From positions 1 through 53,748 of the forward strand of contig DATNIJ010000052.1 in assembly GCA_035604475.1 (NCBI GenBank): a stretch of DNA of 53,748 bases, read 5' to 3'. Position numbers and translations under genes: made by a program. Positions 11,236 to 34,206 of this stretch are shown piece after piece. Positions within the stretch are counted from its first letter, which is position 1; each line of letters starts with the position of its first letter. The notes below the pieces were generated by a model. The model had not been told where the DNA came from, made no database searches, and saw only the letters and a list, made by a program, of their open reading frames with translations. The stretch is from Alphaproteobacteria bacterium. GTDB taxonomy: Bacteria > Pseudomonadota > Alphaproteobacteria > JACZXZ01.

Positions 11236-13263
<2,028 letters not shown>

Positions 13264-13336
13264 GCCGCCGTCGCCCCTTCCGATCGTGATGAAACCAACG
13301 ACCGCACCCCCCTTCCCCGAGAGCGCTTCCTGCCAC

Positions 13337-14230
13337 TTACCTTCTCCTCTTCCCCTTGCGAAAGAGGAACTCGTCCCGCTCGTGGTCGAGCGCATGTTCC
13401 TTAAGAGCCAAAACCTCGCGCCGACCCGCCTGTAGACGGATCAGCCCTTCGTCGGTCATATGCTCGGCCAATTCGCGTTCCGCCTTCTCAACCTCCCGCG
13501 TGGCATGGGAGCTGGAGAGAAGGTCGTAGCTGTGCCGCCACGCCCTCGCTGCCTGCTCGAGGCTCGAGTCCTGAGCCGCAACCCAGGCATCACGGGCCAG
13601 GACACGCGCGAGCGCGCCACCGAAACCGGATGCCACTAGGTGGTTTTTCAGCGCCTCTGTGTCAATATCCGGCTTCCAGGTCTTTATGATCTCGCGCCTC
13701 AGCTCGTCAAGCTCACCCTTGGGCAGCTCAAGGGTGCCAAAGAGCTCGCCGAGCTGATCCAGGAGCGCCGGGTGGCTTACGATTGCGGCCACCAGCCCCT
13801 CCTGGCCGAGCCTGGGCAATGTTTCGGGCTTGCGCGGCCCCTTGAGACCCGCAGCCCCCGGCTCAAGCCCCCGCCGGTCGCCGGGACGGCGCTCCCTGCG
13901 GCCCGCAAAGCCACCCTTGGTCGCTTGGCCGCCGTAATGCTGGTGATAGCGGGCCCAAAGCTCCTGCCGATAGGTTTTCTGCACCGCGTCATTTTTGATC
14001 CGCCGGGCGGTCGCCTCGATGCGCTCTTTCAATCGCGCCCTGCGCTCGGGCGTATCGGCGGGGTGTGCGGCGATCTCCAGCTCCCAGATGAGATCGACCA
14101 GCGGGCGGGCCTCGCTCAAGAGCGTGCGCACGGCCCCAACCCCGCCTTCCTCTCGGAGAAGGGTGTCGGGATCCTCGCCCGCGGGCAGGCGCACGAAGCT
14201 GAGCGACTTGCCGGGAGCCAAGAGCGGCAG
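13337..14230 (-). CDS. dnaG: DNA primase DnaG, C-terminal portion (from the end of the Toprim domain), in a different frame from the N-terminal portion
   Basis: [30 protein letters not shown] continues the canonical primase sequence that follows the DGDxAG motif. This frame is open from about 14230, and the ORF track calls it from TTG 14221. Confidence 0.8.
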
Positions 14231-15179
14231 CGCGCCCCGCCGCGCGCGCGCCCGCCGCGTCGCCGTCGAAGCAGAGCACGGGCTCGTCGACGAGGCGCCA
14301 GAGGAGTGCCAGTTGCGCCTCGGTCAAGGCGGTCCCCAGCGGCGCCACCGCGTCGTTGAAGCCCGCCTTGTGCAGCGCGATCACGTCCATATAGCCCTCG
14401 ACCACGATGAGCCGGCCGCTCTCGGCTGCCCCGCGCCGGGCATGGGCCAGGCCGTAGAGCATCTTGCCCTTGTGGAAGAGCTCGCCTTCCCGCGAATTTA
14501 TGTATTTGGGCGTCGCCTCGCCGAGCGTACGCGCGCCGAACGCGACGATGCGTCCGCGCGCGTCCGCGATCGGAAAGATGACGCGGGCGCGGAAATAATC
14601 GTAGCTCTCGTTGCGCTCCTCGCTATGGGCGATCAGCCCCGCCTCGAGCAAAAGCGCCTCGGGATAGCCTTCCTTGAGGAGGTGGCTCTTGAGCGCATTG
14701 CGCTCGGGTGCCCAACCGAGGCGGAAGCGGGCGATGGTCGTCTCGTCCAGGCCGCGGCGGTGGAGATAGTCGAGTGCCGCCCGTCCGGGCGGGCCCGCGA
14801 GCTGCTTCTCGTAGAAGGTGCTGGCGGCCTCGAGTGCGGAGCCGAGGGTCTTGAGCTTCTCCGCGCGCGCGCGCTCTTGCGGCGAGGATTGCGGTACGGC
14901 GAGGCCCGCCTCGGCGGCAAGCCGCTCGATCGCCTCGGGAAAGCTCAGATGCTCGCTGCGCATGACGAAGCCGATCACGTCGCCGTGGGCGCCGCAGCCG
15001 AAGCAATGGAAGAAGCCCTTCTCCTCGTTGACCGTGAAGGAGGGGGTCTTCTCGTTGTGGAACGGGCACAGGCCGAGGTGCTCGCGGCCCTTGCGCTGGA
15101 GCTTGACGCGCCGGGAGATCGCATCGACGAGCCCCACTCGGGCACGCAGCTCGTCGAGAAATTGTGGAGACAAGGCCAT
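14231..15179 (-). CDS. dnaG: DNA primase DnaG, N-terminal portion (zinc-binding and RNA polymerase/Toprim domains), frame lost near 14231
   Basis: Start at MALSPQFLDELRARV. Zinc ribbon CPFHNEKTPSFTVNEEKGFFHCFGCGAHGD, Toprim EGYMDV and CFDGDAAG are present. After ..AAGRA the frame runs on as non-homologous sequence to a stop at 13989. Confidence 0.85.
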
Positions 15180-15351
15180 CAGGCCGGACCCGCACGCAAC
15201 TCGAGGCTCCCCCACCGGGCGACCCGCCGCCGCCCTCTGCGGCCTCCCCCTGAGGCCGGTCACCCTCTATGTGTTATGGCCGGGGCGCGGCAGCAACGGG
15301 CAGGCGCAAATTATGCGACTCGACCCCTACCCCCTCAACGCTCTCCCGGCC

Positions 15352-15813
15352 TCAGCTTCCTGCCAGCCTCGCCTTGACGAGCATGCTCGCCTTCGCGAAA
15401 TCCATGGTCCCGGCAAAGCGCTCCTTGAGCTTCGCCATCACCTTTCCCATGTCCTTCATCCCGCTGGCACCGAGCTCGCCGACCACTTTTGTGATCGCCT
15501 CCGCCATCTCGCTTTCCGAGAGCTGGCGCGGCATGAACGACTCGATGACCGCAATCTCGCCCCTTTCCTTCTCCGCGAGCTCGGGCCGGCGGCCGCGCTC
15601 GTAGAGCTCGATCGACTCGTGCCGCTGTTTGATCATGCCCTGCATCATCGCGACCATCTCCTCATCGGAGATGCCCTCCGGCTTGCCCTTGGGGCGGGCC
15701 TCGATGTCGCGCTCCTTAAGCCGCGCCAAGATGAGGCGCACCGTCGAAACGGAACGCGCGTCCCTCGCTTTCATCGCGGTCTTGAGGGCCTCGCTCAGGC
15801 GGGCACGGAGCAT
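15352..15813 (-). CDS. GatB/YqeY domain-containing protein
   Basis: MLRARLSEALKTAMKARDARSVSTVRLILARLKERDIE...GASGMKDMGKVMAKLKERFAGTMDFAKASMLVKARL is the typical YqeY sequence. It lies upstream of dnaG. Confidence 0.85.
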   Translation of the reverse strand: MLRARLSEALKTAMKARDARSVSTVRLILARLKERDIEARPKGKPEGISDEEMVAMMQGMIKQRHESIELYERGRRPELAEKERGEIAVIESFMPRQLSESEMAEAITKVVGELGASGMKDMGKVMAKLKERFAGTMDFAKASMLVKARLAGS

Positions 15814-15927
15814 GGAAGGGGACGCCTGCATGGAAAGGGAGCACGGTAACCGGAAACGCTCCGTGGCGCAAGGGATTAACACGGATTAAGCGCTTGAATT
15901 CGCAAGAAATTTTTCGACGCACCCGGC

Positions 15928-15956
15928 TTGACGCCGGCATGGCATTTGCTTATCTA
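15928..15956 (+). promoter_or_regulatory. Putative sigma-70 type promoter of carA
   Basis: TTGACG (15928-15933)-N17-TATCTA (15951-15956), about 55 nt upstream of the carA start. An AT-rich tract TTGAATTCGCAAGAAATTTTTCG lies just upstream. Confidence 0.4.
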
Positions 15957-16009
15957 AGCCGCGGCCCGCCGCACCACGGCTTACGCGCGGCAGCCGGGGA
16001 ACCATCCGC

Positions 16010-17194
16010 ATGTCGCAGCAAGAGCCCACGCGCGCAGAATCGCGGCTGCCGGCGCCGCCGGCGGTCACAGCCGTGCTGGCGCTCTCCGATGGCACGCTCT
16101 ACTGGGGCCGCGGCATCGGTGCCGCAGGCAAGGTCGTGGGCGAGGTCTGCTTCAACACCTCGATCACCGGCTACCAGGAGATCCTCACGGATCCCTCCTA
16201 CGCCGGGCAGATCATCACCTTCACCTTCCCCCACATCGGCAACGTCGGCACCAACTCCGAGGACATCGAGACCATGACGCCGGCGGCGCGCGGCCTCATC
16301 GTCCGCGACGACCCTACGGAGCCGAGCAACTGGCGCGCGACACAGCACCTCAACTCCTGGCTCGTCGGCCACGGGCTTCCCGGGCTCGCCGGCATCGACA
16401 CGCGCCGTCTCACGCGGCGCTTGCGGGAAGGCGGGGCTGCGAACGGCGTCCTGTGCTTTGCCCCCGATGGCCGCTTCGATGTCGAGGCGCTGATCGGCGA
16501 GGCCGCCGCCTGGCCCGGGCTCGAGGGCATGGACCTCGCGCGCGAGGTCAGTTGCCGGCAGACCTATCAGTGGGACGAGACGCGCTGGGTGCTCGGAGCG
16601 GGCTATGGCCGGCAGCTGGAACCGACGCTCCACGTGGTCGCGGTCGATTACGGCGCCAAGCGCAACATCCTGCGCTGTCTCGCCTCCGCCGGCTGTCGGG
16701 TCACCGTGGTGCCCGCGACGACGAGTGCTCAGGCCATCCTCGGCCTCCTGCCCCACGGCGTCTTCCTCTCGAACGGTCCGGGCGACCCGGCGGCGACCGG
16801 CGAATATGCGGTGCCGATGATCCGGCAGATCATCGAGGCGGGAGTCCCCACCTTCGGCATCTGCCTCGGCCATCAGATGATGGCGCTAGCACTTGGCGCC
16901 CGGACCGAGAAGATGCACCACGGCCATCGCGGGGCGAATCACCCGGTCAAGGATCTGCAAACCGGCAAGGTCGAGATTACCAGCCAGAACCACGGCTTCG
17001 TCGTGGTCGAGGCGTCGATGCCGAGCGGACTCGAGGTCACCCACCGCTCGCTCTTCGACGGCAGCGTCGAGGGCTTCCGCCTCAAGGACATGCCCGTCTT
17101 CGCCGTGCAATATCATCCCGAGGCCTCGCCCGGTCCGCGCGACAGCCATTACCTCTTCGCACGCTTCGTCAAGCTGATGGAAGAGAACGCATGA
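16010..17194 (+). CDS. carA: Carbamoyl-phosphate synthase small (glutamine amidotransferase) subunit
   Basis: 394 aa. It has the GICLGHQ catalytic Cys motif, HGHRGANHPV and AVQYHPEA. Confidence 0.95.
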   Translation: MSQQEPTRAESRLPAPPAVTAVLALSDGTLYWGRGIGAAGKVVGEVCFNTSITGYQEILTDPSYAGQIITFTFPHIGNVGTNSEDIETMTPAARGLIVRDDPTEPSNWRATQHLNSWLVGHGLPGLAGIDTRRLTRRLREGGAANGVLCFAPDGRFDVEALIGEAAAWPGLEGMDLAREVSCRQTYQWDETRWVLGAGYGRQLEPTLHVVAVDYGAKRNILRCLASAGCRVTVVPATTSAQAILGLLPHGVFLSNGPGDPAATGEYAVPMIRQIIEAGVPTFGICLGHQMMALALGARTEKMHHGHRGANHPVKDLQTGKVEITSQNHGFVVVEASMPSGLEVTHRSLFDGSVEGFRLKDMPVFAVQYHPEASPGPRDSHYLFARFVKLMEENA

Positions 17195-17247
17195 GCGCAG
17201 CAAATTATAATAGCTGGTTCGTTCCGCTGCACGTGATCCAAGACCTT

Positions 17248-17283
17248 AAATCCCCCTCCCCCCTTGAGGGGGAGGGGGATTTT
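17248..17283 (+). terminator. Strong GC hairpin with trailing U-tract between carA and carB (terminator/attenuator-like or REP-like)
   Basis: AAATCCCCCTCCCCC-CTTGA-GGGGGAGGGGGATTT forms a 16-bp perfect stem with a 5-nt loop and ends in TTTT. It lies 23 nt upstream of the carB ATG. Confidence 0.45.
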
Positions 17284-17305
17284 CCTCTCGCCAATGACCG
17301 CGCCC

Positions 17306-20557
<3,252 letters not shown>

Positions 20558-21120: not shown

Positions 21121-21330
21121 GCAACGCAGTTCGTCGTTGCGAGGAGGCGGAGCCGACCTGCCTGCGCGAAGCCGCAGCGGCTTCGCTCCCGCCTTCGCGA
21201 AGCCCGCTTCGGCGGGCGAAGGAAGGTCGGCGGAGGCAGGCGAAGCAGCCCAGGAGTGTCCAATGAAACCTGATGTGGTGGATTGCTTCGCCTGCGGCTC
21301 GCAATGACGTCGGTGAAGCTTCGGAAGCAG
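21121..21330. repeat. Cluster of GC-rich nested hairpins / REP-like elements in the greA-lrp convergent spacer
   Basis: Hairpins present are GCAACG-N8-CGTTGC, GCGAAGCC-GCAGC-GGCTTCGC and GCCCGC-TTCG-GCGGGC, the last flanked by CCTTCGCGAA/GAAGG. A GCGAAGC motif recurs. Confidence 0.5.
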
Positions 21331-32855: not shown

Positions 32856-33020
32856 TTTACGCGATAACTCTGGCTGAGGGGGGCGGGAGTGACCCGAGCG
32901 CTAGGCCGGCCCGCGCAGCACCCGCTCGTGCCTCGAGGCGAAGCCTGTTGTGCTTATTTTATCCAGATAAGCATAACGCTCGGCCCTCGAGCATGATCCG
33001 ATCAAGTTGAAACACCATGG

Positions 33021-33106
33021 TCGTCACGCCCGCGCAAGCGCGGTCCAGAAGCTGCCTGGATTCCCGCTCCCCGCCTTCGCGGGGACATGCTCCGCGGGAA
33101 TGACGA
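33021..33106. repeat. Composite REP/MITE-like palindromic element
   Basis: TCGTCA..CCGCGC-AA-GCGCGG..TCCAG-N6-CTGGA..TTCCCGC[TCCCCGC-CTTC-GCGGGGA]..GCGGGAA-TGACGA. The GGAATCCC/GCGGGAAT-type core is common in Rhizobiales intergenic repeats. It lies in a convergent spacer. Confidence 0.55.
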
Positions 33107-33141
33107 TGCGAACTGTCGATTCAACGCGATTGGACTTTACC

Positions 33142-34206
33142 CTAGCGATCGCCGCTGAAGACGATGCAGGAGGGGCTCGCGCTCTCGATGGTCTGGCCCG
33201 TTGGCGTCAGCTTCCCGCTCGTCCTGTCGACTCGGAAGGCGACGATGGTGTCGCTCGCTTCGTTGGCCACGTAGAGCTGCCGGCCGGAGGGGGGGAGCGC
33301 AAAGAAGCGCGGCTTTTCCCCTTGCGTCGCTTCCCAGCCGATCGGCGTCAGCCTGCCGCTCGCGCGCTCGATCGCGAAAATGGCGATGCTGTCGTGTCCG
33401 CGGTTGGAGGCGTAGACGAAGGCACCTGAGGGTGCCACGGCGATCTCGGAGCCGGTATTGTCGCCGGTGAAGCTGTCGGGCAGCGAGGGCAAGATCTGGA
33501 GCGGCCGCAGCTCGCCCCGCTCGCCGTCCCAGCGGTAGGTCGTGACGGTCGAGTCGAGCTCATTGATGACATAGGCGCGAGGGAGGGACGGATGGAAGGC
33601 GATGTGCCGCGGGGCTGCACCTCGCCGTGTCTCGACGAAGGGGGGATCGTTCGGCTCGAGCCTGCCTTGAGGAGCGTCGAGCCGAAAGACGAAGATACGG
33701 TCGAGCCCCTTGTCGGGGACGAGCGCGAAACGGCCCGAGGGATCGAAGGGAATATGGTGGGGATGCGAGCCCGTCTGCTCGCGCTTGTGCGGGCCCGGCT
33801 CGCCGGGGAGTGTGAGCGTCCGGATGCGCGCTCCGAGCGATCCGTCGGCCTCGATCGGCACGACCGACAGCGTGCCGTTGGCGTAGTTCGCAGTGACGAT
33901 GAAGCGATTCGTCGGGTCGATCGCGAGATGGACCAGGTTCGCCCCGCCGGCCCGCTGCCGGTTGACGAAGCTGAGCCGTCCGCTCTCCGCATCGATCGCA
34001 AAGGCGCTGATCTCGTCGAGATCGCCATGAACCGCATAGAGAAACCGGCCTCGCCGATCGACGGCCAAGTACGAGGGATTGTCCAGGTCCTCGACGAGCT
34101 GGACATGCCTCCAGCCTCGCGATGCCGGAGCCACCCGGTAGACCTCGATCCCTCTGCCGCGCGCCTTGCGCTTTGTCGTGGTGAACGAGCCGACATAGGC
34201 AAGCAT
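33142..34206 (-). CDS. Lactonase family protein (7-bladed beta-propeller, 6-phosphogluconolactonase-like)
   Basis: 354 aa. The N-terminus MLAYVGSFTT and repeated blade motifs (..PSYLAVD.., ..HLAIDP.., ..PHHIPFDPSG.., ..PRHIAFHP.., ..GSEIAVAPSG..) are present. Confidence 0.8.
   Translation of the reverse strand: MLAYVGSFTTTKRKARGRGIEVYRVAPASRGWRHVQLVEDLDNPSYLAVDRRGRFLYAVHGDLDEISAFAIDAESGRLSFVNRQRAGGANLVHLAIDPTNRFIVTANYANGTLSVVPIEADGSLGARIRTLTLPGEPGPHKREQTGSHPHHIPFDPSGRFALVPDKGLDRIFVFRLDAPQGRLEPNDPPFVETRRGAAPRHIAFHPSLPRAYVINELDSTVTTYRWDGERGELRPLQILPSLPDSFTGDNTGSEIAVAPSGAFVYASNRGHDSIAIFAIERASGRLTPIGWEATQGEKPRFFALPPSGRQLYVANEASDTIVAFRVDRTSGKLTPTGQTIESASPSCIVFSGDR

Follow-up and report, generated by a model that had tools for sequence, protein, structure and literature searches.

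The split primase gene of an alphaproteobacterial metagenome-assembled genome very probably reflects the loss of one 14-nt repeat unit in a single assembly

We present an analysis of a primase gene, dnaG, that is divided into two reading frames in a 53,748-nt stretch of alphaproteobacterial DNA (referred to as a whole as the window), and we conclude that this division is very probably a local assembly or consensus error private to this metagenome-assembled genome (MAG) and not biology. Exactly 14 nt are missing from the window that multiple alignment finds in all 10 relatives. An assembly error is the probable explanation because the gene is unbroken in further assemblies of this strain, and we infer a technical cause for the lesion.

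The gene is located on the minus strand of the window, with the change of frame at 14225-14236. The preliminary description of this DNA had reported dnaG as split over two frames, the first running from 15179 to a stop at 13989 and the continuation extending to 13337, and this is confirmed by the open reading frames (ORFs), their translations and the matches to the dnaG profile TIGR01391. The features of the locus, with the basis for each of them in brackets, are the following.

ATG 15179 to stop 13989, minus strand: ORF of the N-terminal part of dnaG (ORF list and profile match)
14226 to 15179, minus strand: N-terminal part of dnaG in its true frame (CHC2 zinc ribbon, DNAG_N and Toprim)
14259 to 14267, minus strand: DxD (DGD) metal-binding motif of the Toprim fold, GAC GGC GAC (sequence)
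14225 to 14235, minus strand: deletion junction, the sole remaining copy of GCGCGCTGCCG (alignments with contigs L018, L061 and L062)
13989 to 14225, minus strand: out-of-frame Arg/Ala-rich tail of the N-terminal ORF (translation)
13337 to 14233, minus strand: C-terminal part of dnaG in the other frame (rest of Toprim with the EDPD acidic motif, and the C-terminal region)
11236 to 13263, minus strand: rpoD, directly downstream of dnaG (ORF and translation; Sigma70 domains in the gene calls of L061)

The domain set expected of a bacterial DnaG, namely a CHC2 zinc ribbon, DNAG_N and a Toprim domain with its E...DxD motifs, is present in the window. The N-terminal ORF covers positions 3-326 of the 414 in the TIGR01391 profile, scores 403 bits against it (the cut-off is 283.6) and has Pfam matches to PF01807 (Zn_ribbon_DnaG), PF08275 (DNAG_N), PF13662 (Toprim) and PF01751. 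Its DGD motif is aligned, through an intact relative, with the DGD of E. coli DnaG (1EQN, 1DD9), and its true-frame sequence agrees letter for letter with the unbroken allele of the same strain in L061. The Arg/Ala-rich tail that follows is no real protein sequence, and no protein match to it was found in a collection of 5.8 billion clusters. The C-terminal part, which ends at the stop at 13337, matches positions 320-410 of TIGR01391; this was its only profile match, and neither a Pfam domain nor a recognisable DnaB-binding domain came up in a C-terminus that is poorly conserved in the group. In the DnaG frame, the codon changes of the window lineage in the C-terminal part comprise 21 synonymous and 8 non-synonymous ones. 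Purifying selection has thus acted on this part as DnaG coding sequence, and it shows no difference from the unbroken allele of L061; dnaG is therefore not an old pseudogene. A continuous frame through Toprim into the C-terminal region is absent in the window and present in the same-strain contigs L061 and L062. The location of dnaG directly upstream of rpoD is the canonical gene order, and this is therefore the chromosomal primase locus. Exact-identity look-ups of the dnaG ORFs (396, 424 and 294 aa), of the RpoD of the window and of the intact DnaG of L061 returned no record and are uninformative.

In the window, 28 nt separate the DGD codons (14267-14259) from the CTG of the LP motif (14230-14228), as stated from the outset, versus 42 nt in every relative. 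The indel had been assigned to the class of 3n+2 deletions or 3n+1 insertions, with about 14 nt missing from the usual spacing, a figure that alignment to the relatives turns into an exact one. A 701-nt query from the window across the site aligns to 714-nt stretches in congeners, and an alignment with 10 genomes and 6 further contigs contains a single clean 14-nt gap, the gene being otherwise free of indels. At this site the intact allele reads GCGGCGGG-GCGCGCTGCCG-AGC-GCGCGCTGCCG-CTCTTGG in L018, L061 and L062; that is, it contains a perfect 11-nt direct repeat, with two copies of GCGCGCTGCCG at a 14-nt period. One copy survives in the window, and the gap of 14 nt fits equally well before or after it. 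The earlier suggestion that the break occurs in a CG-repeat run can be refined: the junction lies at the 3' edge of the (GC)n run, not within it, and the substrate is the 11-nt direct repeat.

The residues G-R-A-A-E-R-A-L-P that follow DGD are encoded in the intact allele by GGG CGC GCT GCC GAG CGC GCG CTG CCG, and the 11-nt repeat arises from the codon choice within this stretch of roughly 90% G+C. Among more distant relatives a synonymous GCC/GCT difference reduces the repeat match to just 10/11 or 6 nt. The catalytic core of E. coli DnaG (1EQN, 1DD9) could be aligned with an intact relative without a gap, with DGDAAGERAAGRAAERALPLL placed opposite DGDRAGRDAAWRALETALPYM, and this puts the lost residues RAAER in the part of the Toprim fold that separates its acidic motifs DxD and EDPD. 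The genome of the window (G000) contains 162 perfect direct repeats of at least 11 nt with a period of 12-20 nt, of which 128 have a period of 12, 15 or 18; just 34 repeats in these 4 Mb have a period not divisible by three (9 of them a period of 14), and frame-breaking slippage substrates like that of dnaG are therefore scarce. In form, the lesion is a classical case of a short repeat that has slipped or collapsed by one unit, and this form is the same whether it has arisen in the cell, in the tube or in software. An explanation by a hairpin was rejected as non-specific, since the long G+C stem predicted for the intact allele is no better than that of shuffled sequence (z = 0.24).

Independent contigs of the same strain were fetched by exact identity to the YqeY protein encoded in the window. 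One of them, L061 (JGI Ga0311301_10000128, a 254-kb contig), differs from the window over 11366-19813 by 6 mismatches in 8462 nt and the 14-nt gap, and the other, L062 (JGI Ga0310038_10029442), by 3 mismatches in 3293 nt and the same gap. There is no mismatch inside dnaG in either contig, both carry the 14 nt, and in L061 dnaG is called as a single gene of 604 aa. The 14 nt are likewise retained in L018, which is 97.5% identical to the window, and in all 15 other relatives. When collections of metagenome and genome contigs were searched with a gapped pattern that accepts both the 72-nt deleted form and the 86-nt intact form, all six matches were intact and the 72-nt form was absent.

The alignments with relatives also revealed variation outside the site of the deletion. 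Contig L019 (Ga0074044_10025355) is a mosaic, with 98.2% identity to the window in rpoD (11591-13328) and 93.7% in dnaG (13946-15824), while the 3' region of dnaG at 13328-13946 was left unaligned by megablast; this pattern of similarity suggests a recombination breakpoint near the C-terminus of dnaG. All other small indels near dnaG (13273-13308, 15972-16000 and 17203-17297) are located in the dnaG-rpoD, yqeY-carA and carA-carB spacers, and the window exceeds the congener G001 by about 25 nt in the last of these spacers. Three families of short dispersed repeats, 60-150 nt long, are found in the window at 578-732, at 21125-21187 and 21227-21315, and at 32986-33146; they are intergenic and REP- or MITE-like, and dozens of copies with 75-97% identity are spread over many contigs of G001 and G003.

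The source assembly is a fragmented short-read MAG of the MEGAHIT type, with 372 contigs, an N50 of 14.5 kb and no Ns, in which 189 contig ends share exact 141-mers. When the 53-kb window is compared with two congeners, no conserved coding sequence other than dnaG has a frame-breaking indel well within it, and every other indel whose length is not a multiple of three is either intergenic or at the end of a gene. Frameshifts were also scanned for across the genome by GC3 and by codon log-odds, where a strand filter was needed against antisense shadow ORFs. The strand-filtered codon-bias scan of the whole genome yielded two clear intragenic frame switches, that in dnaG and one in a DUF2064 gene (PF09837) on contig C27, which is 4 nt short in a (GC)n run at about 17178-17181. 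The run is GGGCGCGCGCGG in the strain and GGGCGCGCGCGCGCGG in the congener G002, which has an intact gene of 228 aa, and the gene is in frame in three congeners.

The DUF2064 gene provides a control for the behavior of a frameshift between assemblies of this strain. Same-strain contigs, fetched by exact look-up of two neighbouring proteins, carry the 4-nt deficit in seven out of seven independent cases (five JGI samples, GCA_036741655.1 and Logan SRR5829545; the site is at 879-882 in L055 and within 3476-4152 in L068), and real frameshifts therefore replicate between assemblies of the strain. The DUF2064 frameshift is therefore real, and the gene is a genuine pseudogene or truncated gene fixed in the strain. 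The dnaG frameshift is replicated in neither of the two same-strain contigs, which come from samples 3300032160 and 3300030707, both shared with the DUF2064 control.

Three technical variants were considered and rejected. A systematic (GC)n error of this assembly is ruled out by the seven independent contigs that share the frameshift on C27. A noisy long-read assembly is ruled out by the exact 141-nt end overlaps and by conserved genes that show no further frame-breaking indels over 53 kb. A chimeric switch between strains at the junction is ruled out by the similarity to L018 and L061, which is equal on both sides.

Another assembly has trouble at the same place. Contig L063 (GCA_036741655.1, DAINRT010000341.1) matches the window with 100% identity between 16618 and 14264, that is, through the YqeY-dnaG region up to the DGD codons, and past its position 2355/2356 (14264 in the window) it continues with the 3' end of an unrelated hemL-like gene that is absent from the genome of the window. 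L063 thus contains a chimeric join, about 30 nt from the dnaG deletion junction. Given this mis-join at 14264, the dnaG spot derailed another assembly too, and the site in the window, with its 11-nt repeat, is a local difficult region that is not troublesome to one assembly only. Gene callers report a 349-aa 'DnaG' on the chimeric L063.

The preliminary description had put an assembly or sequencing error first among its explanations, and the intact same-strain contigs from other assemblies support that choice. It had also listed a genuine slipped-strand deletion, surprising for an essential gene unless a second primase exists, and a split or recoded primase. A genuine and very recent deletion would mean that replication slippage between the 11-bp repeats removed the 14-bp unit and that a dead dnaG allele, present in a subpopulation, in relic DNA or in a few molecules, became the assembled path. 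We consider this unlikely, even though the anatomy of slipped mispairing is exact (a perfect 11-nt repeat, a deletion equal to the period and one copy kept), repeats of at least 11 nt with a period that breaks the frame are rare enough (34 in 4 Mb) to make this one a plausible hotspot, and the same strain bears a real slippage frameshift in the (GC)n run of a non-essential gene. A de Bruijn assembler, moreover, should require reads that contain the junction. These points are opposed by the essential role of dnaG: with no second primase found, a null allele could not be the majority state of a living population. The search for such a primase in the genome of the window, which is 93% complete, led to one locus with TIGR01391 and PF08275 and to none with Toprim_3 and Prim-Pol. 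Further evidence against a genuine deletion is that it would be private to one assembly of an otherwise identical strain, since two other assemblies are intact, that neither the deleted form nor the out-of-frame tail was found in any other record searched, and that the rest of dnaG is free of decay and identical to the intact allele.

We regard it as extremely improbable that the gene functions as a split or recoded primase in living cells, whether by +1 ribosomal frameshifting or transcriptional slippage, which would produce a nearly full-length DnaG lacking 5 residues, or by reassembly of two fragments, one with the zinc-binding domain and part of Toprim and the other with the rest of Toprim and the C-terminal domain, into an active primase. 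Each half is intact and free of stops in its own frame, as such readings demand, but the frameshift is not conserved, with 15 relatives and the same strain being in frame. The sequence around the junction, GCG GCG GGG CGC GCT GCC GCT CTT, offers no A/T homopolymer for transcriptional slippage and, by inspection, neither a codon known to be prone to +1 shifts nor a stop or rare codon close by, and the next stop in the original frame is 79 codons downstream. There is no credible restart either: the first possible start of the C-terminal part, TTG at 14221, is an ordinary conserved Leu codon with no clear Shine-Dalgarno sequence, and it is 230 nt upstream of the stop of the N-terminal ORF, so that translational coupling is impossible. 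Fragments reassembling in the cell would be broken between the DxD and EDPD metal-binding motifs with the loss of five helix residues, and any rescued product would be without the five conserved residues RAAER, which align gaplessly to RALET of E. coli DnaG.

Slipped-strand mispairing between short direct repeats is the classical model of replication slippage. The dnaG lesion resembles deletions of this kind in that one period is lost and one 11-nt copy kept in a G+C-rich context capable of forming hairpins; it differs in that it would have had to prevail in the sample despite knocking out a single-copy gene that is essential, and in that the hairpin is not stronger than chance (z value as above). 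Unsupported local consensus and wrong repeat numbers are common in short-read MAGs, with 13 cases in one genome of 1.1 Mb (Chen et al. 2020, Genome Res 30:315, PMC7111523). The present case is similar, as it is a short-repeat lesion in a fragmented short-read MAG, the gene is intact in other assemblies of the same population and another MAG has a mis-join next to this spot; unlike in those cases, the dnaG repeat, with two copies of 11 nt, falls short of the k-mer length of any assembler. A frameshift within the essential primase gene of a sequenced bacterium is also found in Blochmannia vafer, an endosymbiont with a reduced genome, where an indel of 1-2 nt in a poly(A)/poly(T) tract is presumed to be rescued by transcriptional slippage (PMC3017870). 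In contrast, the window loses a 14-nt G+C-rich unit with no homopolymer, in a 4-Mb genome of the free-living type, and the same strain is intact elsewhere. The replication gene dnaX of E. coli is likewise read in two frames, by a -1 programmed frameshift as summarised in the same paper, with a conserved slippery heptamer and stimulators and with both products functional, whereas dnaG of the window has no such signals or conservation.

We therefore return to an error of this one assembly as the preferred reading. The real genome, that of an uncultured alphaproteobacterium from soil or peat, would contain an ordinary chromosomal dnaG in single copy, and one 14-nt repeat unit would have been dropped from the consensus in this single short-read MAG, which would divide the gene into two frames; the loss would be a local error of assembly, library or consensus where the repeat is difficult to handle, and would not represent the state of the gene in the living population. 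Some points speak against this reading. With k of at least 21, a de Bruijn graph would not be misled by the 11-nt repeat alone, the other assemblies (L018, L061 and L062) resolved the same repeat correctly, and the assembly is otherwise clean over 53 kb. As the repeat is shorter than k, reads or processed reads with the deletion probably existed, which gives room for a minority or private allele. Their source may be library amplification across the G+C-rich repeat, read processing or a rare real variant where coverage dropped out.

The approach amounts to a cheap test of real versus artefactual frameshifts for MAGs whose reads are not at hand, in which an exactly conserved neighbouring protein leads to independent contigs of the same strain; the contrast here is between the DUF2064 frameshift, present in 7 of 7 contigs, and that in dnaG, present in 0 of 2. 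The dnaG gene of this MAG should consequently carry no pseudogene label, and no claim of gene loss or recoding should rest on it. The break in dnaG is a data-quality flag, and the organism almost certainly has a normal primase.
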